In this document: in pieces, positions 3,580 to 16,759 of the stretch | Position numbering within the stretch: the stretch's first letter is position 1 | Layout of the letters: each line of letters starts with the position of its first letter | The notes under the pieces: model-generated | What the model was told of the DNA's origin: nothing | Databases searched by the model: none | Seen by the model: the letters and a program-made list of their open reading frames with translations, nothing else | Position numbers and translations under genes: made by a program | Origin: Armatimonadota bacterium | GTDB lineage: Bacteria > Armatimonadota > UBA10988 | NCBI GenBank assembly: GCA_016235455.1 | Contig: JACRKZ010000107.1 | Location: 1-51,699 of the forward strand | Direction: 5' to 3' | DNA: 51,699 bases

Positions 3580-6500
3580 CTACTCGTAACTTGGCAGCAC
3601 GACCTTGCCCTCGGCCTGCGCCATCAGCTCGTGCTCATGGCCAAAGAACAGTCCGTTGGAGTCCATCCAGATGGTCAGCCGGCGCCATTCATCGGCGTCC
3701 AGCTTCACGTCGTGGTGGCCCTTCTTCAACAGGTCATAGAGCCGCGAGCCGTGCGCGCCGAAGTTGCCGGGCACGGTGTAGGGCTCCACCCAGTCGGCAT
3801 TGTCGTAGAACTTGACGAAGCCGCGCAGGTTGGCGAACGACGTGTACCACAAGTTGGCGTTCTGAGCGAAGTTCCCGCGGGTCAGGTCGGGCCCGTTGCC
3901 GCCAGGCTTGTGGCAGCTGACGCATTTCGCGTCGAGCACCGGCTGCACGAGCCGCGGGTAGTTGAACGGATGGGTGCCGTCCGGGTCGGGCTCGATGGTC
4001 GAGGCGGCGCGCTTCATGGCCAGCGGCTGGCGCTTGATGCTCGTGCCCTGCACGCGCTGGTTGTGGCAACCGGTGCAGGTGAGCGTCTCGCCGGGCTGCA
4101 CATACGACGCGCTCCTCATGCCCTGCACCGCCGCGCCGGTCTCGTCCAGCGCGTGATAAAGCAGCGGCACGCCCACGGGCGCCTCGAACCAGGCGCTGCC
4201 ATCGGCTTCCACGGGCACCGTGCCCAGCGACGCCTTGGCCGGCTTCTGCGAGCCATAGCCGATGCGCGGCACGTCGGCCAACGGCGTGCTCTTGGGCAGG
4301 ATCTGCCAGATGCGCAGCGCGGTGACCTTGGCCCCGGCGGGCAGCGGTCGCAGCGAATCATAGACGTTGATCAGGCCGATCCGACCGGTCTTGGGGATCT
4401 GGTCGGCCGGCAGCGGCACCGGCTTGGTGCCATCGGCCAGGCGCGGCAGGCCGACGGCGGTGCCGTGCGGGATGACCGGCGGCTTGGTCCGCGGCCGCAG
4501 CGGGATCGGGTCAAGGCAGGAGATGCGCGGGTCGCGGTAGATGATCTCCTTGTTGCCGTAGACATCCAGCAGCGTCAGCGCGTAGTTGCGCTTGGCCGGG
4601 TCGAGCTCGCCCCACTGCGCGTTGGCGTCGTGGTCATAGACGCACAGGAAGTACTTCTCCGACAGCGGCCACGGCGTTGCGTAGGCCGACGAGCCGCGGA
4701 AGCTGTACCACTCAGCCTCGGGGAAGAGCTGGTCCGGCGTGACGCGTTTGATGGCCGACATGGCGCCGTCGTCCTTGGCGCGCGGGTCGATCAGCACAAT
4801 CGAGCCACGGGCCTCGGTGTGATGGCCCGAGGTGATGGCCACCAGCAGCGGCGAGTTGGGCACGGCGCGCACCTGCATCTCCTGATGCGGGGCCGTGCGC
4901 TGGTTCTCGTGAGTGTTGCCGTTCAGCGCGCGGGCATCGCGGCCGTCGGGGTAGGTGACCCAGGCGTGGTGGGCCTGGTTGAACCCGCGGTCCACATAGT
5001 CCCAGCGGGTGTAGATGATGCGGCCGTCGTTGGCCACGCTCGGCTGCCACTCGTTGGTCTCGTGGGGGCTGAAGCGCACGATGTCGGTGCCGTCGTCCAG
5101 CATCGAGTGCAGCGTGTAGCTGGGCACGGGCCGGCCATGGCAGCGGCCAAACCCGCCGCGCCGCTCGGAGATGAAGGCGATGCGCCCGTTGGGCAGCCAG
5201 CACGGGTCGAAATCATTCACCGAGCCGTCGGTCAGTTGGGTCAGCCCGGTGCCATCGGTCCTCACGCGGAAGATGTGGAACGTGGTGTCCTCTTTCCACT
5301 GCCGCAGGTCGGGCCTGCCCTCGGTCCAGGCGAAGAGGATGTCCTTGCCGTCGAACGACAGGTCGGGCGAGAGGAACCCGCCGTGGTCGAGCTTCTGGCC
5401 CTTCATCAGGCCGCTCTCGACCACCGAGTTCTCCAGCACGTTGCGCACCGTCGGCTTGGCGCCAAAGGGGTTCGACAGCACGTAGACGCCGTCGCCCTTG
5501 GTCTTGCCGTGCAGCGTGGCGTGGAAGCCGAAGAACTGGTCGCACATGTGGTTGCCGTCGTTGTACTCGTCGGTCGGCAACGCCTCGCGCGTGATGAACA
5601 GGATCTGGTCCATGCCGCGCAACAGCGGGTTGGCAAAAGCGATCTCGCGGCGCAGCGCCACGGTGCGGCCGAACAGCGCCAGACGCGCGTCCAGGTCCTC
5701 GACCTTGGCCGTCTTGTTCTCGGCCTCCAGGCCGGCCAGGCGCTTGCCCTGGTCATCGAGCTTGACCTGCGCGCTCAGGTCGTCGAGCAGCGCGCGTGTG
5801 CGGCGCAGTACGACATCCACCGGGTCGCGATCCTCGGTCTTGAGCATGGCCTGGTCGCTGACCGACTGCCGCGCGCGTTCTTCGGGGCCGGCGATGCCGC
5901 CATTGAAGGTCTGCGTCCAGCCGCGGCGCTCCAGGTCCTTCTGGAGCTGGATGAACTCCTTGGCCACCTCGCCGCTGTAGCGCCTGGTCAACTCGGCGAT
6001 GCGCTGCTGGTAGGTGGGGTCGGGCGGTTGCTGCACGCCCAGCATGGCGCATTGCTTGGCGGTGGGCACACCGGTGATGACTACGAACTGCACGCTGGAG
6101 GAATCGCTCTGGTTGGCGCCGGAGTCGTCGATACCCGCGCGCGCCTGGAAGCGATCGTAGCCCTCGGGCACGGCGAAGAGGACCAGGCCCGGCGAGTGGA
6201 TGCCGAGTCCGTCGGCCTGCGGCTTGCCATCGATGCTCATCGGGCTGCCGGCCGGGCTCTTGCTCTTGCTGAGCGTGCCCCAGCCGGTGACGCCGAAGAT
6301 CCAGTCAAGCTCTGTCAGGCGCTTGGTGCCCGCCGGCCCGACGAACCGCGCGTCGACCCAGTCGCAGTGGTCGCAGGCGTAGCTGTCGCCGCCTTCGCTG
6401 ACCAGCAGCGTGATGAACTTGGCCCCGCCCAGGGCCACATCGATGTCGACCGACCGGCCCGGTGTGCGCTTGGTGACCACCTCGCTGACGAAGCCCACGT

Positions 6501-6603
6501 TGGGCCCCGCCTCGGCCATCTGGTCTTTGTTGACCACCGGCGGCGCGGCATACACCGCACCGGCCACCAAAGCCACCATCCATGTAACGCGCAACCTGGC
6601 CAT
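3580..6603 (-). CDS. Secreted HzsA-related protein: NPCBM/NEW2 domain + TolB/PD40-like beta-propeller + hydrazine synthase alpha middle-like domain + two c-type heme motifs
   Basis: Signal peptide; NPCBM-like GLGIHSPG...FQARAGIDD; propeller motifs DFDPCWLPNGRIAFISER and DGRIIYTRWDYVDR; LGTVPVEADGSAWFEAP...VQGMRS; CTGCH and CVSCH. Confidence 0.85.
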   Translation of the reverse strand: MARLRVTWMVALVAGAVYAAPPVVNKDQMAEAGPNVGFVSEVVTKRTPGRSVDIDVALGGAKFITLLVSEGGDSYACDHCDWVDARFVGPAGTKRLTELDWIFGVTGWGTLSKSKSPAGSPMSIDGKPQADGLGIHSPGLVLFAVPEGYDRFQARAGIDDSGANQSDSSSVQFVVITGVPTAKQCAMLGVQQPPDPTYQQRIAELTRRYSGEVAKEFIQLQKDLERRGWTQTFNGGIAGPEERARQSVSDQAMLKTEDRDPVDVVLRRTRALLDDLSAQVKLDDQGKRLAGLEAENKTAKVEDLDARLALFGRTVALRREIAFANPLLRGMDQILFITREALPTDEYNDGNHMCDQFFGFHATLHGKTKGDGVYVLSNPFGAKPTVRNVLENSVVESGLMKGQKLDHGGFLSPDLSFDGKDILFAWTEGRPDLRQWKEDTTFHIFRVRTDGTGLTQLTDGSVNDFDPCWLPNGRIAFISERRGGFGRCHGRPVPSYTLHSMLDDGTDIVRFSPHETNEWQPSVANDGRIIYTRWDYVDRGFNQAHHAWVTYPDGRDARALNGNTHENQRTAPHQEMQVRAVPNSPLLVAITSGHHTEARGSIVLIDPRAKDDGAMSAIKRVTPDQLFPEAEWYSFRGSSAYATPWPLSEKYFLCVYDHDANAQWGELDPAKRNYALTLLDVYGNKEIIYRDPRISCLDPIPLRPRTKPPVIPHGTAVGLPRLADGTKPVPLPADQIPKTGRIGLINVYDSLRPLPAGAKVTALRIWQILPKSTPLADVPRIGYGSQKPAKASLGTVPVEADGSAWFEAPVGVPLLYHALDETGAAVQGMRSASYVQPGETLTCTGCHNQRVQGTSIKRQPLAMKRAASTIEPDPDGTHPFNYPRLVQPVLDAKCVSCHKPGGNGPDLTRGNFAQNANLWYTSFANLRGFVKFYDNADWVEPYTVPGNFGAHGSRLYDLLKKGHHDVKLDADEWRRLTIWMDSNGLFFGHEHELMAQAEGKVVLPSYE

Positions 6604-6749: not shown

Positions 6750-7514
6750 TCAGCCGATGTTGCACACGTCGTAGGCCGCCTTCAGCGCTGCCAGCTTGTC
6801 CGCGCCCTTGGGCGAGAACTCGTGGCCGACATAGCCGGTGAAGCCGGTCTCGGCGATGGCGCGGACGATGGGCCGGTAGTTGAGCTCCTGCTCGTCGTCC
6901 AGATCGTTGCGGCCGGGGTTGCCCGCAGTGTGATAGTGCAGGAAGTATCGGCCGCCATAGTCGCGGATGTTGCGGATGACGTCGCCTTCCTGGATCTGCA
7001 TGTGGTAGATGTCATACAGCAAGCCGACGCGCGGCGAGCCCACCAAGTCGCACATGGTCACGCCCCAGATAGTGTGATCGCACATGTAATCCTTGTGGTT
7101 GACCTTGCTGTTGAGCAACTCGACGGCCAGGTTGACGCCCTTGTCCTCGGCCAGTTCGGCCACGCGCTTCAGGCCGTCGGCGGTATTGCGCATGCCGACC
7201 AGGTCGTCCATGCCGTTGCGGTTGCCCGAGAAGCAGACCAGCGTGCCCACGCCGTGGTCGGCGGCGAAGGCGATCCGCTCGCGCAACTCGGGCTCGATGC
7301 GGTCGTGGTTCTCGGGCTTGTTGAGCCCGTCGACCAGCGACTGATGGCCGCCCATGGTGGCGATGCCCAGCCCGTATTTGGGCGCTACCTCGCACATCTC
7401 CGGGCTGGCCAGATCGACGCCCTCGAAGCCGATGTCGGCCATGGCCGGAAACAGCTCGTCGAGCGCCATGCCGCCCAGCGGCCAGACGGTGAATGCTTGT
7501 CGGATGTGTGCCAT
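6750..7514 (-). CDS. Hydroxypyruvate isomerase (Hyi)-family / xylose isomerase-like TIM barrel protein
   Basis: CFSGNR, ELLNSKVNHKDYMCD, LLYDIYHMQIQEGD, HYHTAGNPGR, GYVGHEF. A GAGGA SD precedes the ATG at 7514; the longer ORF upstream is repeat-derived. Confidence 0.88.
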   Translation of the reverse strand: MAHIRQAFTVWPLGGMALDELFPAMADIGFEGVDLASPEMCEVAPKYGLGIATMGGHQSLVDGLNKPENHDRIEPELRERIAFAADHGVGTLVCFSGNRNGMDDLVGMRNTADGLKRVAELAEDKGVNLAVELLNSKVNHKDYMCDHTIWGVTMCDLVGSPRVGLLYDIYHMQIQEGDVIRNIRDYGGRYFLHYHTAGNPGRNDLDDEQELNYRPIVRAIAETGFTGYVGHEFSPKGADKLAALKAAYDVCNIG

Positions 7515-7547
7515 CGTGCTAAGTCCTCTCGTGGGTCCTAGCGTGGG

Positions 7548-7572
7548 CTTCGCGAGCCGCTCGCGGCTTCCT
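7548..7572 (-). promoter_or_regulatory. Putative sigma-H-like promoter of the Hyi gene
   Basis: GCAGGA-N17-GAAG on the minus strand. The same spacing occurs at four other gene starts. Confidence 0.5.
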
Positions 7573-7585
7573 GCCGGAGTCTGAG

Positions 7586-7661
7586 TCCACAGATTACGCA
7601 GATTACACAGATGGCGTGGCGGGTGGATCAGCTCATCTGTGTAATCTGCGTAATCTGTGGA
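7586..7661. repeat. Family B inverted repeat (9-bp periodic CAGATTACR arms), copy 1
   Basis: Perfect 28-bp IR TCCACAGATTACGCAGATTACACAGATG (7586-7613) / CATCTGTGTAATCTGCGTAATCTGTGGA (7634-7661) with a 20-nt spacer. Confidence 0.92.
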
Positions 7662-8443
7662 TCTGAGCGATCGTCGCCCAGCGGATGGCCCATGGCCAGA
7701 AACAGGCCGTGCAGGATCATCCACGGATGAGGCGGGCCGCCGGGCACGTAGACGTCCACGGGCAGCACGGCGTCGACGCCGTTGGCCTCGGCGTAGCCGC
7801 CGGCGTGGATGCCGCCGGAGATGGCCGCGCAGCCCAGCGCGATCACCAGTCGCGGTTCGGCCATGGCGGCGTGGCAGCGGCGCAGCGGCTCGGCCATGGC
7901 GCGGCCCACGGGGCCGGTGACCAGGAGCGCGTCGGCATGGCGTGGCGAGGCCACGAAGTGCAGGCCGAAGCGGAAGCAGTCGTAGATCGGATTGCAGGCC
8001 GCCTGGATCTCCATGTCGGCCGCGTTGTCGCCGGTGGACACCTCACGGATATGCAGCGACCGCGCGAATGGCCGGCGCCGTGGCGCGGCCGGAGTGGGCC
8101 GGTCCAGCGGGCGGTTGGAGTGCAGCAGTTCGGCCCGCGTGCGTACCGCAACGCGCGTGTTCCGGTCGGCGACCAGCGTGGACGTGGGGCAGCCGTCGGT
8201 ACAGGCGCGACAGGCCAGGCAGCGGCCGCGGTCGACGGTCACGGTCGGGTCGCTGTTCGCCTCGGGCAGCACCGTGACCGCCGAGGTAGGGCAGGCATCG
8301 AGGCAGGCGCGGCAGCCGTCCGCCGCGGCGCAGGGCTGGTCGGAGACCGTGGCCAGCGTCAGCGCATGGTCGGCCAGGTCGGGCAGCATATCGCTCGTGG
8401 TGTGGCGCTTGGTGTGCAGCAGGCCGAGCAGTGTGTTGATCAT
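7628..8443 (-). CDS. Ehr/Hyf-like small subunit: 2x[4Fe-4S] ferredoxin domain fused to a NuoB/HyfI-like domain with degenerate N2 ligands
   Basis: CAAADGCRACLDACP and CLACRACTDGCP; RFGLHFVASPRHADALLVTGPV; VDVYVPGGPPHP. Confidence 0.88.
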   Translation of the reverse strand: MINTLLGLLHTKRHTTSDMLPDLADHALTLATVSDQPCAAADGCRACLDACPTSAVTVLPEANSDPTVTVDRGRCLACRACTDGCPTSTLVADRNTRVAVRTRAELLHSNRPLDRPTPAAPRRRPFARSLHIREVSTGDNAADMEIQAACNPIYDCFRFGLHFVASPRHADALLVTGPVGRAMAEPLRRCHAAMAEPRLVIALGCAAISGGIHAGGYAEANGVDAVLPVDVYVPGGPPHPWMILHGLFLAMGHPLGDDRSDPQITQITQMS

Positions 8444-8467
8444 GACAGCCTCATATCAGATTGCTCT

Positions 8468-8537
8468 CTGAGATCCACAGATTACGCAGATTACACAGAT
8501 GGACAGATCGGGCATCTGTGCAATCTGTGGATCTCAG
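8468..8537. repeat. Family B inverted repeat, copy 2
   Basis: CTGAGATCCACAGATTACGCAGATTACACAGATG (8468-8501) / CATCTGTGCAATCTGTGGATCTCAG (8513-8537). The right arm is one 9-bp unit shorter. Confidence 0.9.
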
Positions 8538-8557
8538 GGGCTCGATGGCATTGGACC

Positions 8558-10066
8558 TCACAAGTCGTTGCCGCTATAGGACAGGCCGAAGCTCTTGTTG
8601 CAGAGCGGGAAGTCGCTGACCACTTCGCCGCGCGCGGCCACGGCCAAGCCGGTCCAGTTGTTGAAGCTGGGGTCCTTCACCGCATAGCGCAGGATCTGTC
8701 CCTGGTCGCCGGTGAGGACCAGGTGCACCAGCTCGCCGCGCCAGGCCTCGACGAGGCCGCAGGCCCAGCGGTCGGCCGGCAGTCGGTCGGGCAGGTCGAC
8801 ACGGGTCGGCGCGTCGGGGTTGTGCTGGGCCAGCAGGCGCCGCAGCAAGGTCAGGCTGGCACGGATCTCGGCGCAACGCACCGTGCAGCGGGCCAGCACA
8901 TCGCCGTCGCCGCCGCGCGCGGGCTGCCAGCCGAGGTCCGCATAGGGCGGCTGGCTTAGCGCGGAGCGCACATCGTAGTCGAGGCCCGCGGCGCGGCCGG
9001 CGGGCCCCACCAGGCCGATCTCGTCGGCGATGGGCCGCGGCACCACGCCGGTGCCGGCCATGCGTTCCAGCGCGCCGGAGTTGTCCAGCAGCAGCGGCTC
9101 GGCGCGCTCGAAGCCGTCGATGAGCTGCGTCACGCAGTGTTCGGCGCCCTCGCGCTGGTCGCCCGGCAGCGGTCGCGCCAGGCCGCCGGGCACGATGGCG
9201 TGGGCCTGGTAGCGGCTGCCGCACAGCCACTCGCTGAGGATCTGCGCGCGTGGCCTAAGCAACGAGAAGGCCGTGGCGCCCGCGGCGAATCCCGTGTCGG
9301 CGCAGTAGCCGATCAGATCACCCAGGTGGCAGGCCACGCGTTCGCATTCCAGCAGTGCCGCGCGCAGAGCCACCGCGGCCGGCGGCGGCTCGATGTCCAG
9401 CAGGCTCTCGACCGCCAGCGCATGGGCCAGGGCGTTGCCCGCCGCGGTGTCGCTGGAAATGGTCGACACGACATGGTGCGCCTGACGCCAGGGCGTACGC
9501 GCCAACTGCTCTTCGAGCCCCCGGTGCTGGTAGCCGAGGCGGATCTCCAGGTGCTGAATGACCTCGCCATGGCAACTGAACCGGAAGTGGCCCGGCTCGA
9601 TGATGCCGGCATGGATGGGGCCGACGGGGATCTCATAGACGCCCTCGCCACCGACTTCGAGGAAGCGGTAGCGCGTGGCCTCACCGGTCTCCGCGGCGCC
9701 GTCGCAGGGCGTGGGTCGCAGCGGGTGCAGGTGAGCCGGCCAGGCTTCGTGCAGCAGCAGCGGGTTCGGCCGGGCCTGGTCGGCCGGGCGCAGGCCAAAG
9801 AAGTCGTAGAGTGCGCGTTTGGCCCAGTGCGCCTGGGGCACCAGCCGGGTCAGCGGCGGCAGCGTGTCGTCGTCCAGCGGCGTGCGCCACAGCGCGGGTC
9901 GCAGCTGGCCGGCGGCCTGGCCGTCGGGGCTCAGCACCAGGGCGGCCAGCGCCAGCCTGGACTGGCCATCGTCGGCGGCGGTCAACAGCGCCAGCCGGCC
10001 GCCGCGCTCGATGAGCGCCTTGAGTTGCGGGGCCAGGTCGGCCCGGCTCACGGTGGTCGGCGTCAT
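8558..10066 (-). CDS. Ehr-type large subunit (NuoC+NuoD / HyfG-HycE-like) lacking NiFe-binding CxxC motifs
   Basis: EIPVGPIHAGIIEPGHFRF, RLGYQHRGLE, VEAWRGE, DPSFNNW and the C-terminus DFPLCNKSFGLSYSGNDL. The ATG overlaps the upstream stop (ATGA). Confidence 0.9.
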   Translation of the reverse strand: MTPTTVSRADLAPQLKALIERGGRLALLTAADDGQSRLALAALVLSPDGQAAGQLRPALWRTPLDDDTLPPLTRLVPQAHWAKRALYDFFGLRPADQARPNPLLLHEAWPAHLHPLRPTPCDGAAETGEATRYRFLEVGGEGVYEIPVGPIHAGIIEPGHFRFSCHGEVIQHLEIRLGYQHRGLEEQLARTPWRQAHHVVSTISSDTAAGNALAHALAVESLLDIEPPPAAVALRAALLECERVACHLGDLIGYCADTGFAAGATAFSLLRPRAQILSEWLCGSRYQAHAIVPGGLARPLPGDQREGAEHCVTQLIDGFERAEPLLLDNSGALERMAGTGVVPRPIADEIGLVGPAGRAAGLDYDVRSALSQPPYADLGWQPARGGDGDVLARCTVRCAEIRASLTLLRRLLAQHNPDAPTRVDLPDRLPADRWACGLVEAWRGELVHLVLTGDQGQILRYAVKDPSFNNWTGLAVAARGEVVSDFPLCNKSFGLSYSGNDL

Positions 10067-11511
10067 TGGCCCACTCCCTGCGCAATGGCCAGCAGGCCCG
10101 GCGACAGCGCGACGCCCAGCGCCACCAGGCCCGCCAGCAGCGCGGTCGGCACCAGCCAACGGCTGGCATCGTGGGCCGGCGGGTCCAGGTCGGCCGGCGG
10201 TTCGCCGAGCAACAGGCCAGCCAGATGGATGGCCAGCGCCACAAACGCGACGGCCAGCGCCAGGCTGAGCACGACCACCACCAGCGCATGGCCCGTGTCA
10301 GCTGCCTGGCTGAGGATGTGCCACTCAGCCAGGAAGTTGCCGAACAGCGGCGTGCCGGCCACCGCGGCGACGGCCAGGGCCAGCAGCAGCGCCTCGCGTG
10401 GCCGCCGCTGCGCCAGGCCGCGCACGCGGTCCAGTGCCTTGGTGCCGTAGTCCTGCAGCACGTTGCCGGCGAGCAGGAACAGCGCCACCTTGGCCAGACT
10501 GTGACACAGGGCTTGCAGCGCCAGGCCCTGGCCGTCGAACAAGGCGATGGCGGTGGCCATGATGCCCACGTTCTCCATGCTCGAGTAGGCCAACATGCGC
10601 TTGAGGTCGTGCTGGCGCAGCAGCATGAGGCTGGCGGCGACCACCGTGGCCAGCGCGAGAGGCAACAACGTCATGGCCACGAAGCGCTGCTGGCCGGCGG
10701 CCTGCAGGATGCTCGCGGCGCGCCACAGGCCGATCAGCGCGCAGTTGAGCAGCGCGCCCGAGAGCATGGCGCTGGCTGGCGCGGGCGCCTCGCTGTGGGC
10801 GTCGGGCAACCAGGTGTGCAGCGGATAGAGCCCGGCCTTGGTGCCATAGCCCAGCAGCACGAACAGGAAGCCCAGCCGCAGCAGCCTGACCGGCAGCAGT
10901 GCCGCGTGGTCGGCCAGCACCGCGACCGACAAGCTGCCCTCGGGCAGCGCGCCGACCTGCTGTGAAGCGGCGAACAGCAGCGCCGTGCCGAAGAAGGCGA
11001 AGGCGATGCCCACGCTGCAGATGATCAGGTACTTCCAGGTGGCTTCGAGCGAGGTGCGCGAGCGGTGGTAGTAGACCAGCGGCGCCGAGCAGACGGTGGT
11101 GGCCTCGATGCTGATCCACAACAGACCGAGGTTGTCCGCGCAGCAGACCAGGCACATGGAGGCGCAGAACAGCGCGGTGAACCCGTAGTACTGGCGCACG
11201 GCACGCGGTGTGGGCGGATGCGGGCCGGCCAGCTCGCGGTCGAAGAAGCCGACCGCGTGAGTCAGCGCCGCGGCCACGACGATCAACGTGAGCAGCAGGA
11301 ACCAGGCCGCAAGCGAGTCCAAGCGGCAGACACCATCCGGCTCGGGCGCGCCACCGGCCAACAGGCGCGGCACGGCCACCACGGTGGCCAGCGCCAGATG
11401 CGCCCAGGCCAGCACGGCGGCGCGGCGCGTGAGCTGCGCGATGGTCGGTTGGCTCGCGGCCAGGGCCAGCGTCAGCAGCGGCACGAGCAGCAGGATCACG
11501 GCGAGGATCAT
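10063..11511 (-). CDS. hyfF: HyfF-like antiporter-type membrane subunit
   Basis: Polytopic; LWISIEATT, SLEATWKYLIICSVGIAFA, GYGTKAGLYPLHTWLPDAHSEAPAP, LKRMLAYSSMEN. Confidence 0.88.
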   Translation of the reverse strand: MILAVILLLVPLLTLALAASQPTIAQLTRRAAVLAWAHLALATVVAVPRLLAGGAPEPDGVCRLDSLAAWFLLLTLIVVAAALTHAVGFFDRELAGPHPPTPRAVRQYYGFTALFCASMCLVCCADNLGLLWISIEATTVCSAPLVYYHRSRTSLEATWKYLIICSVGIAFAFFGTALLFAASQQVGALPEGSLSVAVLADHAALLPVRLLRLGFLFVLLGYGTKAGLYPLHTWLPDAHSEAPAPASAMLSGALLNCALIGLWRAASILQAAGQQRFVAMTLLPLALATVVAASLMLLRQHDLKRMLAYSSMENVGIMATAIALFDGQGLALQALCHSLAKVALFLLAGNVLQDYGTKALDRVRGLAQRRPREALLLALAVAAVAGTPLFGNFLAEWHILSQAADTGHALVVVVLSLALAVAFVALAIHLAGLLLGEPPADLDPPAHDASRWLVPTALLAGLVALGVALSPGLLAIAQGVGQ

Positions 11512-11515
11512 GGGG

Positions 11516-12136
11516 TCAGTCCCGGAGCGAGTCGAGCGCGGTCACGTCGATGTGCTCGAAGCGGTCGTTGATGCGGAAGGCCAGCAGCCCGGCCAGCATG
11601 GCCACGGCCAGCAGCTCGAGCAGAACGCCCAACTCGACCAGCAGAGGCATGGAGCGCGGCTGGGCGATGGTGTAGTAGAAGATGCCGTTCTCCAGCACCA
11701 GGAAACCGATGATCTGGCTGACTGCCATGCGGCGCGAGATCATCAGGATCATGCCGATGAGCAGCAGCGCCAGTGCCGGCAGGTCGGCGACGCGCAGGGC
11801 ATCGTGCATGGGCCGCAGCAGCAGCAGCGCGGACAGCACACCGACGGTCAGCAGCAGCAGCAGCGGCGGCGCGATGAACAGGCCCTCGTCCCGCCGGCAG
11901 CCGATGTGCCGCGTCAGGTGCAGCAGGTAGGTCGGCACGGCCAGGCCCTTGAGCAGCGCCGACACCAGGCCGACGACGATCAACGCCAGCTCGCCGTGCT
12001 GCCAGCCGATGCTCACCGCCGCCGCGTCCAGCGCCAGGGTCTGGACACCATAGACCACCAGCTTCGTGCGCAGGTTCGTCAGGCCGACCATCCACAGTCC
12101 GGTCAGCACCAGGAACGCGGCCATCGTTTCAGACAT
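11516..12136 (-). CDS. hyfE: HyfE-like membrane subunit
   Basis: Hydrophobic, 206 aa; SQIIGFLVLENGIF, MPLLVELGVLLE, FRINDRFEHIDV. Start MSETM at 12136. Confidence 0.85.
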   Translation of the reverse strand: MSETMAAFLVLTGLWMVGLTNLRTKLVVYGVQTLALDAAAVSIGWQHGELALIVVGLVSALLKGLAVPTYLLHLTRHIGCRRDEGLFIAPPLLLLLTVGVLSALLLLRPMHDALRVADLPALALLLIGMILMISRRMAVSQIIGFLVLENGIFYYTIAQPRSMPLLVELGVLLELLAVAMLAGLLAFRINDRFEHIDVTALDSLRD

Positions 12137-13214
12137 GCTCAGCACCTGACCTTGGGGCGAATAGCACGGCCCGTGCCGGACCGCCACGCTCCAGCGTGGC
12201 ATCGGGTCGGAGACCCGACCGTTGCGGCGGGATCGCGGTTGTCTCGTCCGACGGCTGCGCCGACGGCCGATGCCATGCTGGAGCATGGCGGTCCGGCGCA
12301 GGCGACGGTGCCTCGCTTTTGAGCGCGACAATCAGGCAGGCCATGGTGGCCGCCGTCAGGCCGAAGGCCATGAGCGCGGGGATGCGCCGCCAGCGCAGTC
12401 GCACCATGACCGTCTCGATGAAGGCCACCACCGCGCAGGCGCCGACGATCAGTGCCAGGCTGGTCGCATGCGCCGCCCAGGGCGCCAGGGCCGGCGTTCC
12501 CATCAGCAGCACCTGGGCCAGCAGGCCGAACAGCACGGCCAGCTTGATGCCCGCGCCCAGCTCCACCAGCGCCAGATTGCGTCCGGAGTTCTCCAGGATG
12601 AGCGCCTCGTGGATCATCGTCAGTTCGAGGTGCGTGGTCGGGTCGTCGACGGGCATGCGCGCCAGTTCCGCGGTGATCGACAGCCACAGCGCGGTGCCGA
12701 CCAGCGGCAGCAGTGTGCCCAGCTCGGCGCCGGGCCGCGAGGCGAAGAGCACCGCCAGGTCCGACGAGCCGGCCTGCACGGCCAGCGCGGCCAGCGCCAA
12801 CACCAGCGCCGGCTCGGCCAGCACGCCGACCGCCGCCTCGCGGCTGGCGCCCAGCGCGCCGAACGTCGTGCCGGGGTCGAGCGCGGCGAGCGACATGGCG
12901 AACTTGCCCAGCGCCAGCAGGTAGACCAGCAGGAACACATCACCATGCAGCGGCGCCGGCAAGCCCAGCCAGGGCACCGACAGCGCGCAGACCAGCACGC
13001 AGCCCAACGCCACCGACGGCGCGGCGGCAAAGACCCAGGTGGTCGTCTCGCTGATCGTCTCGCCCTTGCGCGCCAGCTTGGCCAGGTCGCGGTAGACCTG
13101 CCACACGGGCGGGCCCTGTCGACCTTGCAAGCGCGACTTGAGCTTGCGCAACAGACCGATCAGCAGCGGCGGCAGCAGCAGCGTATAGGCCAGATAGAGT
13201 GCCCAGCCGATCAT
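12129..13214 (-). CDS. hyfC: HyfC/HycD (NuoH-like) membrane subunit with a 62-aa repeat-derived C-terminal tail
   Basis: LQGRQGPP, DLAKLARK, FGALGASRE, AELARMPVDDPTTHLELTMIHEALILENSG. The start MIGW overlaps the hyfB stop. Confidence 0.88.
   Translation of the reverse strand: MIGWALYLAYTLLLPPLLIGLLRKLKSRLQGRQGPPVWQVYRDLAKLARKGETISETTTWVFAAAPSVALGCVLVCALSVPWLGLPAPLHGDVFLLVYLLALGKFAMSLAALDPGTTFGALGASREAAVGVLAEPALVLALAALAVQAGSSDLAVLFASRPGAELGTLLPLVGTALWLSITAELARMPVDDPTTHLELTMIHEALILENSGRNLALVELGAGIKLAVLFGLLAQVLLMGTPALAPWAAHATSLALIVGACAVVAFIETVMVRLRWRRIPALMAFGLTAATMACLIVALKSEAPSPAPDRHAPAWHRPSAQPSDETTAIPPQRSGLRPDATLERGGPARAVLFAPRSGAEHV
12175..12297. repeat. REP-like inverted doublet (family D) inside the 3' end of hyfC
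   Basis: 31-bp arms GCCGGACCGCCACGCTCCAGCGTGGCATCGG (12175-12205) / CCGATGCCATGCTGGAGCATGGCGGTCCGGC (12267-12297), with 2 mismatches. Confidence 0.85.
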
Positions 13215-15184
13215 GGCACCATCCTTCCCACGACCAGCAGCAGCAACAGCACGACCAGCATGGCGGTCAGGTAGGCATGGATGCTGCCCGCCTGACACCG
13301 CGCGATCCAGCGGCCACAGCGGTCGATGAACTGCACCGCGGGCCGGTAGACGTGCGCCCCGAGGATCGGGTCGGTGCTGGGCACCACGGTGATGCGCCGG
13401 GGGAACAGGTCGGCGCGGTCGCCCTCCACACGGCGGGTCACCGCGTAGCGCATCAGGTTGCCGAACAGCCGTAGCAACGGCTGGGCGAAGCTGCCGGCGG
13501 TAGCCTGCATGCGCGGGCCCAGGTCGCCAAAGCCGCACTCCCAGGTGATGTAGGTGCGCGACGGCTGCGCCAAGTCCGCGGTGCGTCGCAGGCACCAGGC
13601 CGCGGCCACCGTCAGCGCCAGCACCGCGGCCAGCGAGCCCATGGGCAGCGTCCATACCGTGGTCAGCGCGGCGGCGGCGGGCGCCAACGGCGCAACCACC
13701 GGCTCGAGCGCCGCCAACACCCAGGGCGCGCCCAGTCCAAGCAGCAGGCAGACCGCGGCCAGCCCAATCTGCGCGATGCGCATCCCGCGGCCGACCTCGA
13801 CGGCCTCGGCCATCTCCGCCGAGCGCGGTCGGCCCAGGAAGGCGATGCCCGTGGCTTTGACAAAGCAGGCTAACGCCAGCACGCCAGCCAACGCGATCCA
13901 GCCGACCAGCAGCATCGCCGCGAAGCGCGGCAGCGGCGCGGAGCCGCCAACGGCCAGCCCCAGCGCGCTCTGGTAGAGCAGCCACTCGCTGGCGAAGCCC
14001 GACAGCGGCGGCAGCGCGCAGATGGCCGCGCTGCCGGCCACGAAGCAGGCGAAGGTCGTCGGCAGGCGCCGGCCCAGACCGCTGAGCAGCCGCAGATCCC
14101 GCGTGCCCGTGGCCACATCCATCGCGCCGGCGGCCAGGAACAGCAGCGCCTTGACCACGGCGTGGCTGAGCACATGGAACAGCGCCGCCGCCAGCGCCAG
14201 CCGCGCGGCCACCGGCAGCCCCAGCCCGCTCGCGACCATGGCCAGGCCCACACCCACCAGGATCAGGCCGACATTCTCCACGGTGCAGTAGGCCAGCAAC
14301 CGCTTGAGATCATCCTGCAGCAGTGCGAATAGGACGCCCCAGAAGGCAGAGACAGCGCCCAGCACCAGCACCGTCACGCCCAGCGCGGGATGGCTGAACG
14401 CCGCCGGCAGCACAAACAGCCGGACCAGCGCATAGACCGCCACCTTGACCATCACGCCGCTCATCAGCGCCGACACCGGCGACGGCGCCGCGGGATGGGC
14501 AATGGGCAGCCACAGATGGAACGGCCACATGCCCGCCTTGACACCCAGGCCCAGCAGCACCAGCAGCCCCGGCCCTAGCGCCGCCGCGCCGCTCAGATGC
14601 CAGTCGGAAAACGTCCAACTGCCGCTCTGCGCATGGGCCCAGAGGAACCCGCCCATCAGCGCCGCCGTGCCCACGCGCGTGGCGCCCAGATAGACCAGCG
14701 CCGCCGACCGCACCGCCGGCGTGCGCCCGTCGGTGGCCACCAGCGCGAACGAACTGAGCGACATGACCTCCCAGGCCACGAGGAAGGTCGGCGCGTTGGC
14801 CGCCAGCACCACGCCGACCATGCTGACCAGCAGCAGGCCCAGGCTCGGCCAGTAGGCGCGGGTCTCGGCATGCCGCGTCAGATGCCGCAGGTAGCCCGGC
14901 TGATACGGCGCCGTGCCCGCCGCTACCAGCCCGATGACCGCAACGAACCAGCCCGCCAGGGGATCAAGCCGGAAAGCAAAGGGCGAACCGCCTAACGAGA
15001 ACGGCGCGGCCAGGTAGACGTCGCTCGGCGCCGCGGCCATCAGCAGCACGCCACCGATCAGTGCCGCGCACCCGCCGCTGAGCAGTAGGAGCGCTGAGCG
15101 CCGATGCGCCCGACCACCCGACAGCAGCAGACCCCAGGCGAGCACGGCACCCGCTACCAGCAGCGCTGGCAGGCCAAACGTCAC
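13211..15184 (-). CDS. hyfB: HyfB/HycC-like antiporter-type membrane subunit
   Basis: FLVAWEVMSL, GVKAGMWPFHLWLPIAHPAAPSPVSALMSG, LPPLSGFASEW, FLGRPRS, TWECGF, RMQATA. The GTG start overlaps the ArsR stop. Confidence 0.88.
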   Translation of the reverse strand: MTFGLPALLVAGAVLAWGLLLSGGRAHRRSALLLLSGGCAALIGGVLLMAAAPSDVYLAAPFSLGGSPFAFRLDPLAGWFVAVIGLVAAGTAPYQPGYLRHLTRHAETRAYWPSLGLLLVSMVGVVLAANAPTFLVAWEVMSLSSFALVATDGRTPAVRSAALVYLGATRVGTAALMGGFLWAHAQSGSWTFSDWHLSGAAALGPGLLVLLGLGVKAGMWPFHLWLPIAHPAAPSPVSALMSGVMVKVAVYALVRLFVLPAAFSHPALGVTVLVLGAVSAFWGVLFALLQDDLKRLLAYCTVENVGLILVGVGLAMVASGLGLPVAARLALAAALFHVLSHAVVKALLFLAAGAMDVATGTRDLRLLSGLGRRLPTTFACFVAGSAAICALPPLSGFASEWLLYQSALGLAVGGSAPLPRFAAMLLVGWIALAGVLALACFVKATGIAFLGRPRSAEMAEAVEVGRGMRIAQIGLAAVCLLLGLGAPWVLAALEPVVAPLAPAAAALTTVWTLPMGSLAAVLALTVAAAWCLRRTADLAQPSRTYITWECGFGDLGPRMQATAGSFAQPLLRLFGNLMRYAVTRRVEGDRADLFPRRITVVPSTDPILGAHVYRPAVQFIDRCGRWIARCQAGSIHAYLTAMLVVLLLLLVVGRMVP

Positions 15185-15546
15185 GGCAACACCTCCGGGT
15201 CCACGCCGGTCGGCGTGGCCGCCTCGGCCTGAATCGACAACAGGAGATCGCTGGCCTGGCTAAGTTGCTGCTCGAAGTAGGTGCGCAGCGAGGCCAGCAC
15301 GTCCAGCAGCAGCGGGCTGCGAATGGAGTAGAACACCTGGTTGCCCTCGCGGCGCGCCACCACGATGCTCTTGCCGCGCAGCACCGCCAGGTGCTGCGAC
15401 ACATTGGCCTGCTCCAGCCCCAGACGCACCATGATCGCGCCGGCGGTGATCTCACCGTCGCGCAACAACTCCACGATGGCGATCCGCGTGGGATGAGCCA
15501 ACGCGGAGAAGATCTCAGCTTTGAACCGGCGCAACGCGTCGTCCAT
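15181..15546 (-). CDS. ArsR/SmtB-family transcriptional regulator heading the Ehr operon
   Basis: FKAEIFSALAHPTRIAIVELL...QANVSQHLAVLR...RREGNQVFYS winged helix; 121 aa. Confidence 0.92.
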   Translation of the reverse strand: MDDALRRFKAEIFSALAHPTRIAIVELLRDGEITAGAIMVRLGLEQANVSQHLAVLRGKSIVVARREGNQVFYSIRSPLLLDVLASLRTYFEQQLSQASDLLLSIQAEAATPTGVDPEVLP

Positions 15547-15572
15547 GAGAGCAGTCCCTCTATCTCGATTGC

Positions 15573-15610
15573 ATGATATCGCATACCGGTATATTCGCAA
15601 GTTCGAATAT
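15573..15610 (-). promoter_or_regulatory. Sigma70-like promoter with an overlapping ArsR-type operator palindrome
   Basis: Minus strand TTGCGA-N16-TATCAT. The inverted repeat ATATTCG-N6-CGAATAT (15591-15610) covers the -35 box in an AT-rich patch. Confidence 0.65.
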
Positions 15611-15642
15611 GAGGTGCTCTCCGGCGGCGCCAGAGCCGCGGA

Positions 15643-15667
15643 AGGCAATCGAGCGGGCCTGGCGAAT
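15643..15667 (+). promoter_or_regulatory. Putative sigma-H-like promoter
   Basis: AGGC-N17-GAAT, 21 nt before the ATG at 15689. Confidence 0.5.
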
Positions 15668-15688
15668 CCGCGCGCGGAGGTCGCTCGC

Positions 15689-16759
15689 ATGCTCAGCGCC
15701 AAACCCGATTTCGACGAAGCCAGGACTCGCTGGGAGCACTTCTGGCACGGTGAGGTCGACAAGCGGCCGCTGGTCATGGCCCATGCGTTCCATGGCCAGG
15801 TGCGCGAGTGGCCGGGCTCGCGGTCCTATGAGCGCGCGGTGCTCGGCCGGTACGACGAGACCCTCGACCTGATCGACGAGTTCATGGATGTGGCTGAGTA
15901 CCTGGGCGAGGCCATGCCGTCGTTTGGCGTCTGCCACGGGCCGGACCAGTACGCCGCCTTCCTGGGCGCGGAACTGAAGTTCAACGACAGTTCGGGCAAC
16001 ACCAACTGGGTGGACCCGCTCATCGACGATTGGGCCACCGCCGACCTGACGCTGCACGAGGCCAACCCGACCTTCCAGAGCGTGCTGGCTTTCGGCCGCG
16101 CCATGGCCGAGCGGGCGCGAGGTCGCTATCTGGTCGGGCCGATCGATGCCCACTCGCACCTCGACACGCTCAGCGCCCTGCGTGGGCCGCAACGGCTGCT
16201 GATGGACCTGTACGACTGCCCCGAGCAGATCGACCGCGCCATGGCGCAGGTGCGGCCGCTGTTCCCGCGCGTCTACCAGGCGGTGTGGGACGCGGGTGAC
16301 ATGGGCGGCGCCAAGGGCTGCAGTCAGGGCGAGTTCTGGGGGCCCGGCAAGTTCGGCGTCATCCAGTGCGACTTCATCTACATGATCGGGCCTGAGCACT
16401 TCCGCCGCTTCGCGCTGCCGGCCATCGCGGAGGAGGCGGCGTGGCTCGACCAGGTCTACTTCCACCTTGACGGGCCCGGCTCGTTCCGCCACCTCGACGA
16501 CCTGCTGGCGGTGCCCAACATGGGCATCATCTCCGTCGACTCCGGCGACGGCCAGCCAGAGAACCACACCTGGGTCGACCTGTTCCAGCGCATCCTGGCC
16601 GCCGGCTGCAAGGTGCGCATCTACGGCTCCGGGCTCGATCTGGAGCGCATCAAGGTGCTGCACCGCGAGTTGGGCCCGCGCAACGTGATCTACAGCCCGG
16701 CCGTGGGCACGAGGGCCGAGTTCGAGCGGATCTGTGATTGGCTCGTCGCCAATACGTGA
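15689..16759 (+). CDS. Uroporphyrinogen decarboxylase/MtaA-superfamily TIM-barrel protein of unknown function
   Basis: GPDQYAAFLG, LSALRGPQRLLMDLYD, IQCDFIYMIGPEHFRRFALP, FHLDGPG; GGAGG SD. Confidence 0.75.
   Translation: MLSAKPDFDEARTRWEHFWHGEVDKRPLVMAHAFHGQVREWPGSRSYERAVLGRYDETLDLIDEFMDVAEYLGEAMPSFGVCHGPDQYAAFLGAELKFNDSSGNTNWVDPLIDDWATADLTLHEANPTFQSVLAFGRAMAERARGRYLVGPIDAHSHLDTLSALRGPQRLLMDLYDCPEQIDRAMAQVRPLFPRVYQAVWDAGDMGGAKGCSQGEFWGPGKFGVIQCDFIYMIGPEHFRRFALPAIAEEAAWLDQVYFHLDGPGSFRHLDDLLAVPNMGIISVDSGDGQPENHTWVDLFQRILAAGCKVRIYGSGLDLERIKVLHRELGPRNVIYSPAVGTRAEFERICDWLVANT

Follow-up and report, generated by a model that had tools for sequence, protein, structure and literature searches.

An Ehr-type membrane complex without the cysteine ligands of the proximal iron–sulfur cluster

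Complex I, the membrane-bound hydrogenases and their relatives are regarded as having a single cofactor in common, the proximal (N2-type) [4Fe-4S] cluster, which is also seen as the site where redox energy is passed on to the ion-pumping machinery. It is in the NuoB-NuoD pocket that complex I reduces quinone and the hydrogenases produce H2. The Ehr (Ech/energy-converting hydrogenase-related) complexes are among these relatives and were reportedly named in Geobacter sulfurreducens (EhrA-D/L/S), in studies said to be those of Coppi in 2005 and Marreiros et al. in 2013. Here, an Ehr operon is described whose NuoB-like small subunit lacks the cysteines that bind the proximal cluster. The operon is located in a 51,699-nucleotide stretch of DNA from an Armatimonadota bacterium (GenBank assembly GCA_016235455.1, contig JACRKZ010000107.1, positions 1 to 51,699), which is referred to in its full length as the window.

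Excerpts from published work define Ehr complexes by the missing nickel-iron (NiFe) ligands and give their function as unknown (PMC10284858, PMC10432482, PMC6349859, PMC7304191, PMC4758237, PMC7894505). None of them speaks of the cluster in the small subunit. Excerpts from two of these papers propose that Ehr complexes link the translocation of charge to redox reactions in the cytoplasm, and a formate dehydrogenase is suggested as the partner (PMC6349859, PMC7894505). No published statement about an Ehr small subunit without the proximal cluster was found, and the founding Ehr papers could carry an earlier mention. The presence of four proximal-cluster cysteines is the usual state of Ehr complexes; it is not known to be part of the original definition of the family.

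The operon of the window (positions 7628-15546, minus strand) is predicted to encode a complete Ehr complex, as indicated by its large subunit without a NiFe site, its set of membrane subunits, its NuoB-like subunit and its 2x[4Fe-4S] module. It shares with other Ehr complexes the six-gene set and its order, the large subunit without NiFe cysteines, and the fusion of ferredoxin with NuoB. However, the other members keep the four cysteines of the proximal cluster (62 of 64), whereas the clade of the window has none or few of them. The nearest solved large and small subunits belong to the Escherichia coli HycE/HycG hydrogenase (7z0s), which has membrane subunits of the same types. By contrast with that enzyme, the complex from the window lacks both the NiFe and the proximal ligands, and its ferredoxin is fused to the small subunit. 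The core modules are homologous to those of respiratory complex I, including the chain of charged residues of the antiporter-like and NuoH/NuoK-like subunits; however, the window complex appears to be without the N2 cluster, has no NuoEFG, and has isoleucine and serine in place of the histidine and tyrosine of the quinone site.

Ligand positions of the small and large subunits

The small subunit (7628-8443, minus strand, 271 residues) starts with MINTLL, which is common to its homologs. Its 2x[4Fe-4S] ferredoxin domain, similar to NuoI and HycF, spans residues ~30-112 (8108-8356, minus strand) and contains eight cysteines: C38, C44, C47, C51, C75, C78, C81, and C85. The Oxidored_q6 domain, similar to NuoB and HycG, spans residues ~124-252 (7688-8074, minus strand). 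The best solved relative is E. coli HycG (7z0s_G, E-value 8.7e-27). In the HMMER alignments with solved chains, the HycG sequence VDCGGCNGCEIEI is matched by VST-GDNAADMEI of the window, YGACGNSGG by LGCAAISGG, and PGCPP by PGGPP. The four ligand positions are occupied by D139 (8027-8029), A142 (8018-8020), A206 (7826-7828), and G236 (7736-7738, all on the minus strand), and C205 is positioned one residue before the third of them. Alignments with the chains of MbhJ and of bacterial and mitochondrial NuoB (PSST) display the same loss of ligands as the alignment with HycG. The NuoB/HycG domain lacks the ligand set for the proximal [4Fe-4S] cluster, and the claim of the original prediction, which was derived from the window sequence, that N2-type ligands have been lost at three sites is borne out by these comparisons.

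The codons of ligand positions 3 and 4 agree with metagenome contigs of three sequencing runs from one study and one run from a second study, and those of positions 1 and 2 agree with contigs of the three runs from the first study. This agreement is a check of the assembly and not independent biology, as the window itself may derive from one of the runs. The sole variants in the long contigs, at positions 7859 and 7901, are synonymous third-position changes.

The large subunit (8558-10066, minus strand, 502 residues) has NuoC-like and NuoD/HycE-like parts and contains a Complex1_49kDa domain. Its best solved relative is HycE (7z0s_E, E-value 1.6e-51). The CGIC of HycE motif 1 is aligned to a four-residue gap, and the sequence DPCYSC of motif 2 is replaced by GLSYSG, so that the ligand positions are without cysteines. 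The site of motif 1 is occupied by STISSDT (9446-9466, minus strand) and that of motif 2 by DFPLCNKSFGLSYSGNDL (8561-8614, minus strand). The four NiFe cysteine ligands in the L1 and L2 motifs, by which group 4 [NiFe]-hydrogenases are recognized, are absent from the large subunit. Large-subunit motifs of the Ehr type, with the family motif DFPLCNKSF.LSY.G.DL, are present in all 82 aligned rows. The large subunit has no NiFe site, as is the case in all Ehr complexes, and the earlier assignment of the locus to an Ehr-type operon whose large subunit lacks both CxxC motifs is upheld by the Pfam and NCBIfam matches together with the HycE alignment. In the alignment to the Thermus chain 2fug_4, the positions of Nqo4 His38 and Tyr87 are Ile and Ser. 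These two residues of Nqo4 belong to the quinone site, according to an excerpt from PMC4758237.

Distribution and origin of the ligand loss

The best 120 homologs of the small subunit are 55-72% identical to it, and those that are named are labelled Armatimonadota or Chthonomonadaceae. Eighty-eight of them are devoid of cysteine in the four ligand columns; one cysteine remains in 17 homologs, two in 5, and three in 10, and no homolog has the full set of four. At position 1, Asp occurs in 84 homologs, Cys in 22, and Ser in 14. Position 2 is Ser in 50, Thr in 41, Ala in 19, Cys in 9, and Gly in 1, and position 3 is Ser in 65, Asp in 20, Cys in 15, Ala in 13, Gly in 4, and Pro in 3. Position 4 is Asp in 53, His in 19, Ser in 11, Cys in 11, Asn in 9, and another residue in 17. 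By contrast, each of the eight cysteines of the ferredoxin domain is kept in at least 118 of the 120 homologs.

Among the 129 columns of the NuoB domain, the former ligand columns now rank 31st, 16th, 14th, and 3rd in variability, which argues against a replacement ligand set. Alternative ligation by C150 (in AACNP), C156 (in YDCF), or C205 was rejected because these residues are present in only 3, 3, and 4 of the 120 homologs, respectively. The invariant C190 was rejected as a replacement ligand because it is equally invariant in the sister clade with four ligand cysteines, from Melainabacteria. There is no conserved substitute ligand set. The suggestions that the AACNP and YDCF cysteines or the shifted cysteine could serve as alternative ligands do not survive the comparison, and neither does an Asp-based ligand set, since only position 1 is mostly Asp and positions 2-4 are highly variable.

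When one genome per species was scanned, 80 related loci were obtained. The order hyfB-hyfC-hyfE-hyfF-large-small was found, by our own assignment of open reading frames, in 57 of them; most of the others are on cut contigs. The phylogeny of the complex was determined from 82 rows of the large subunit, a marker that is independent of the cysteine trait of the small subunit. Eighteen Cys-poor rows group together with a support of 80 in the Shimodaira-Hasegawa-like approximate likelihood ratio test (SH-aLRT). They form sub-clades of 6 rows that include the window (SH-aLRT 99) and of 12 rows (SH-aLRT 100). The Cys-poor group is sister to 33 four-Cys rows from Melainabacteria, and the joint clade has an SH-aLRT of 99. 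The branch leading to the window is long (0.69). Outside the Cys-poor clade, 62 of the 64 Ehr rows have cysteines in all four columns, and the deviation in the remaining two is apparently a local slip of the alignment. The four-Cys loci originate from Melainabacteria/Obscuribacterales, Geomonas (L089), Desulfovibrio, Myxococcota, Planctomycetota, Thermoplasmatota, and others. The original prediction had regarded the proximal cluster as part of the conserved core of Ehr as well as of its relatives; this holds outside the Cys-poor clade, but it is not universal, as the window clade and a lineage of Actinomycetota demonstrate.

In a tree of the small subunit from which the ligand columns had been removed, the three-Cys forms (C-T-C-C) are basal and paraphyletic to the Cys-less forms within a clade of 75 rows. 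The group to which the window belongs is entirely Cys-less. At least four changes between three or more cysteines and fewer than three are required on this tree. The Armatimonadota-centred clade has lost its cysteines stepwise and repeatedly. The picture that emerges is that the ancestor of the clade would already have been able to do without the proximal cluster, after which the ligands would have been eroded repeatedly on an otherwise constrained scaffold. A fused ortholog is present in 5 of 40 other genomes from the phylum of the window and in none of 5 genomes from the same family, and therefore the distribution of the complex is patchy.

A second lineage without the cysteines was identified in Actinomycetota. 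Several of 150 representatives obtained by clustering at 50% have sequences of the type GSDG..E.E / GTDA / PGSPP at the three ligand sites. A search with one such sequence returned 120 proteins, the named ones from Streptomyces, Micromonospora, Pseudonocardiaceae, Streptosporangiaceae, and Acidimicrobiales (proteins P0151 and P0271-P0389; loci L093-L137). The N-terminal domain of these proteins has only four conserved cysteines, the Cys-Pro of motif 1 and the CxxCxxC of motif 2. In the textbook ferredoxin pattern, those four cysteines are the ligands of one cluster. The order of the operon on metagenome contigs is hyfC-hyfE-hyfF-large-small-hyfB, and the large subunit is without CxxC. The two lineages share a NuoB-like subunit without the proximal-cluster cysteines, encoded in an Ehr-like operon. 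The Actinomycetota version keeps the ligands of a single cluster and has another gene order, whereas the window clade keeps two full clusters. The loss in Actinomycetota is probably independent of that in the window clade. The complex from the window is set apart from the other cluster-less lineage by its ferredoxin domain, which has retained the motifs of both clusters ahead of the point where the wire is cut.

Selection, operon organization and genomic surroundings

With the ligand columns excluded, the NuoB domain is the best-conserved part in the Cys-less clade, with a median pairwise identity of 0.71 versus 0.55 for the large subunit. Relative to the large subunit, the NuoB domain has diverged no more in the Cys-less clade (0.65, 152 pairs) than in the four-Cys Melainabacteria (0.68, 515 pairs) or in other Ehr complexes (0.74, 463 pairs). 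The relative divergence of the ferredoxin domain is 1.15 in the Cys-less clade versus 1.18 in the four-Cys clades. The ratio of non-synonymous to synonymous substitution rates (dN/dS) in the small subunit was calculated by the Nei-Gojobori method. Most Cys-less pairs are saturated, with dS undefined or above 1.5; the two usable pairs have dN/dS of 0.10 (L015/L019, dS 0.57) and 0.13 (L005/L006, dS 1.43). The four-Cys pairs have values of 0.12 and 0.04. The ratio of 0.30 between the window and L016 is unreliable at 70% G+C, and the values for L070/L072 were ignored because of over-long calls of open reading frames. At the 85% level, the Cys-less clade and the four-Cys clade next to it can be told apart by only two positions in the two subunits: residue 139 of the small subunit, which is ligand 1 and has changed from the Cys of the sister clade to Asp, and residue 30 of the large subunit. 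Coordinated remodelling of the small and large subunits seems to be absent.

The membrane arm is encoded by four genes on the minus strand. The HyfB-like, NuoL-type antiporter-like subunit (13211-15184, 657 residues) has a GTG start codon and matches Proton_antipo_M and the model of hydrogenase 4 subunit B (550 bits). The HyfC-like, NuoH-type subunit (12129-13214, 361 residues) matches NADHdh (E-value 5.8e-35). The small HyfE-like subunit (11516-12136, 206 residues) matches the model of the hydrogenase 4 membrane subunit (E-value 1.1e-17), and the HyfF-like antiporter-like subunit of the NuoM/N type (10063-11511, 482 residues) matches Proton_antipo_M and the model of hydrogenase 4 subunit F (341 bits). 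The conservation of charge was evaluated in columns in which at least 85% of the family members have a charged residue. In these columns, the window keeps E139, K216, H223, K294, E303, H337, H341, and K345 of HyfB; E136, K225, K304, E313, H337, K341, and E396 of HyfF; E134, E183, D190, E197, E203, and E267 of HyfC; and E149, E168, and R135 of HyfE. The sole exception is a conservative replacement of Arg by Lys at position 104 of HyfC. We take these charges to be the glutamate of transmembrane helix 5, the lysine of transmembrane helix 7, and the later Lys, His, and Glu of the antiporter-like subunits, together with the NuoH/NuoK carboxylates. Residue 92 of HyfC, a family-conserved Asp that is also Asp in the window, is Asn in 8 of 11 members of the Cys-less clade; no other conserved charge of the membrane subunits is altered in a large part of the clade.

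The scaffold, the ferredoxin domain, the large subunit, and the membrane charges have remained under purifying selection, and the loss of the ligands is not a recent decay. A large clade of the kind that had been envisaged in the original prediction, Cys-less and maintained by purifying selection, was found, and the opposite case, in which the relatives would all have kept the four cysteines, does not hold.

All seven frames of the operon are intact and co-directional, and the family assignment of each gene is backed by Pfam and NCBIfam. Overlaps of 4 nucleotides connect arsR with hyfB, hyfB with hyfC, and hyfF with the large-subunit gene; hyfC and hyfE overlap by 8 nucleotides, hyfE and hyfF are separated by 4 nucleotides, and the gap between the large- and small-subunit genes is 114 nucleotides. 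The only Pfam families matched by the seven proteins are Proton_antipo_M, NADHdh, Oxidored_q2 (weakly), Complex1_49/30kDa, Oxidored_q6/Fer4, and the helix-turn-helix families of the regulator.

The first gene of the operon, arsR (15181-15546, minus strand), was delimited from the listed open reading frames and inspection of start codons. Its 121-residue product matches HTH_5 and HTH_20 of Pfam and NF033788 of NCBIfam, and the best solved relative is Mycobacterium tuberculosis Rv0081 (6jmi_A, E-value 2.8e-18, query residues 4-107), followed by a second match at 1.9e-12. The sequence contains no cysteine. The protein is predicted to be an ArsR/SmtB regulator of the Rv0081 type, with the HTH_5 winged helix and without metal-sensing cysteines. 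Homologs of arsR adjoin the operon in 16 of the 80 related loci. Rv0081 heads the M. tuberculosis operon Rv0081-Rv0087, which is termed the EHR complex in an excerpt from PMC6728331. The two systems share an ArsR-family regulator at the head of a hyc/hyf-like Ehr operon; however, they come from different phyla. A sigma-70-like promoter match is located 27 nucleotides upstream of arsR (15573-15600, minus strand), which is weak evidence, as the scan of positions 7300-16000 returned one site versus 0.4 expected in shuffled sequences. The terminator scan returned two sites versus 2.0 expected, which is no excess. The Rfam scan of the whole window matched no family, and therefore no riboswitch.

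The gap between the large- and small-subunit genes is filled by a palindromic repeat (8474-8535) that resembles repetitive extragenic palindromic (REP) elements and has an exact arm at 8474-8500. A second REP-like palindrome is located at 7586-7661, and its arm 7635-7661 overlaps the 3' end of the small-subunit gene. This arm encodes the last codons of the small subunit, and the resulting tail DPQITQITQMS is absent from all homologs. The repeat consists of 27-nucleotide arms in inverted pairs, of which there are 31 arms in the genome versus none for a control pattern. Its depth in the metagenome contigs is 10-50x that of the flanks, and contigs end there.

The neighbourhoods of 10 Cys-less loci and the window have no gene in common, and no formate dehydrogenase, carbon monoxide dehydrogenase, or NuoEFG-type module is positioned beside any of them. 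The absence of hyp maturation genes that had been remarked on earlier is true of the window; however, the genome carries HypD on another contig (C35). Other contigs also encode three genuine NiFe large subunits (C1, C37, C41) and two ordinary NuoD proteins (C113, C143), whereas the Ehr operon of the window is the only one in the genome. Therefore, the Ehr complex adds to, and does not replace, normal hydrogen and NADH metabolism, and the presence of HypD and the NiFe genes elsewhere in the genome is uninformative about the Ehr operon.

Several neighbouring genes were recorded. In the window, a 412-residue open reading frame (15521-16759, plus strand) is divergent from arsR and has no Pfam match at an E-value of 1e-5. 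A 1007-residue protein (3580-6603, minus strand) has an NPCBM/NEW2 domain, a match to HZS_alpha, the middle domain of hydrazine synthase alpha (E-value 6.3e-18), and CxxCH-like motifs close to its C-terminus. A URO-D-like gene (10746-11843) adjoins the operon in locus L015. In locus L013, from a complete metagenome chromosome, two hemerythrin-domain genes (10980-12245) are directly downstream of the Cys-less Ehr operon; this arrangement was found in that one locus only.

Possible mechanisms and meaning of the cluster loss

The reading that we tentatively prefer, at somewhat short of an even chance, is that the complex is a selected Ehr variant that functions as a redox-independent or redox-gated ion translocator with a cut electron wire. 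The wire would break off at the ferredoxin domain and so lack the final cluster before the NuoB-NuoD pocket. With neither a proximal cluster nor a catalytic metal in the pocket, the movement of ions would not be driven by electrons through it. The membrane arm of HyfB, HyfF, HyfE, and HyfC may act as a redox-independent, gradient-driven exchanger of protons or cations in the manner of Mrp antiporters, whose antiporter-like subunits belong to the same superfamily and move ions without a redox cofactor. This is a working analogy, since Mrp antiporters have subunits of the MrpE/F/G type and no NuoB/NuoD/NuoH-like arm, whereas the reverse is true of the window operon, which is not a member of the Mrp family. 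The peripheral arm may have been kept as a lid and a gate on the HyfC entry. The two remaining clusters may be required for folding, or they may constitute a sensor of redox state or oxygen that gates the transport, and the expression of the complex would be set by the Rv0081-type repressor. The original prediction of a redox-decoupled or rewired ion-translocating complex is favoured by the comparative data, and it is from these data that we infer it.

Several observations weigh against a translocator with a cut wire. The retention of the ferredoxin cysteines and the unchanged rate of the ferredoxin domain are expected if electrons still matter. The Asp at position 1 in 84 of the 120 homologs and the convergence of the Actinomycetota on the same residue hint at a selected role for a carboxylate, and the simple loss that leaves an empty site does not explain the recurrent Asp. 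The forms with three cysteines, found in 10 of the 120 relatives, may still bind a cluster, and the clade may thus not be functionally uniform. None of the seven operon proteins was identified by Pfam as a subunit of the MrpE/F/G type, which is linked to the handling of Na+, so the analogy to Mrp is partial. Furthermore, no RNA runs are listed as containing the locus.

It is possible, if rather unlikely, that the complex is a rewired redox enzyme. Electrons would enter the ferredoxin clusters and leave to an acceptor or to a partner protein bound close to the ferredoxin domain, or they would reach the pocket in a long tunnelling step; NuoB would serve as a scaffold, and translocation would remain redox-driven. 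The best argument for such rewiring is the preservation of the eight ferredoxin cysteines in at least 118 of the 120 homologs, to which are added the relative constraint on the ferredoxin domain, the same as in the four-Cys clades, and the rest of the complex, in which nothing has changed compared with the sister clade that keeps four cysteines. It would also agree with the published proposals of redox-coupled charge translocation by Ehr and of a formate dehydrogenase partner, as given in excerpts from PMC6349859 and PMC7894505. However, the large subunit has no catalytic metal site, and no oxidoreductase partner is conserved beside the operon. Without the proximal cluster, the pocket would be about twice as far from the nearest remaining cluster, according to the established geometry of complex I and the membrane-bound hydrogenase (MBH), and the Actinomycetota lineage, with the ligands of one cluster only, cannot form a wire.

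It is improbable that the pocket instead binds a cofactor by ligands other than cysteine, be it an iron–sulfur cluster ligated by Asp, His, or Ser, a mononuclear metal, or a cation. Other proteins have [4Fe-4S] clusters in which an Asp or a His supplies one of the ligands; however, no iron–sulfur cluster is known to be bound without any cysteine. Residues in the clade would suit such a site: Asp in 84 of the 120 homologs at position 1, Asp or His in 72 at position 4, and Asp in 20 at position 3, and the Actinomycetota have convergently acquired Asp at the first and third positions. By contrast, the window itself, with D/A/A/G, could offer no more than a single ligand, the columns of positions 2-4 rank among the most variable, and no conserved alternative cysteine exists. 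That the operon is a decaying relic, whether unused, in early pseudogenization, or distorted by an assembly error, is highly improbable, because its seven frames are intact with overlapping stop and start codons, the same state extends across a clade with dN/dS of ~0.1 and the conserved membrane residues kept, and independent contigs agree at the ligand codons, even though none of five genomes of the same family carries the operon, REP-like repeats have inserted between the large- and small-subunit genes and into the 3' end of the latter, and the end branch of the large subunit is long (0.69).

A translocator with a cut wire would fit a broader and more speculative proposal, which we regard as doubtful: several Ehr lineages, among them the clade of the window and the Actinomycetota clade with its cultured Streptomyces and Micromonospora, may have independently cut the iron–sulfur wire at its last station while keeping the pump. 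In the window clade, the two upstream clusters would be left without a destination for their electrons, and they may have come to sense redox state or oxygen and thereby gate a secondary ion transporter. The clade without the proximal cluster, in which all else is under selection, is a natural experiment on the NuoB-NuoD-NuoH module without electron transfer. The loss of the cluster constrains the function of Ehr complexes, which are distributed widely, nitrifiers and Geobacter included, and to which an operon of M. tuberculosis is the counterpart. The Actinomycetota version, found in proteins from Streptomyces and Micromonospora according to their NCBI names, is a tractable entry point. If the broader proposal is true, iron–sulfur clusters that act as a sensor gating a secondary ion transporter would be without precedent in the complex I superfamily, and the function conserved at the core of all Ehr complexes would not be driven by electrons.

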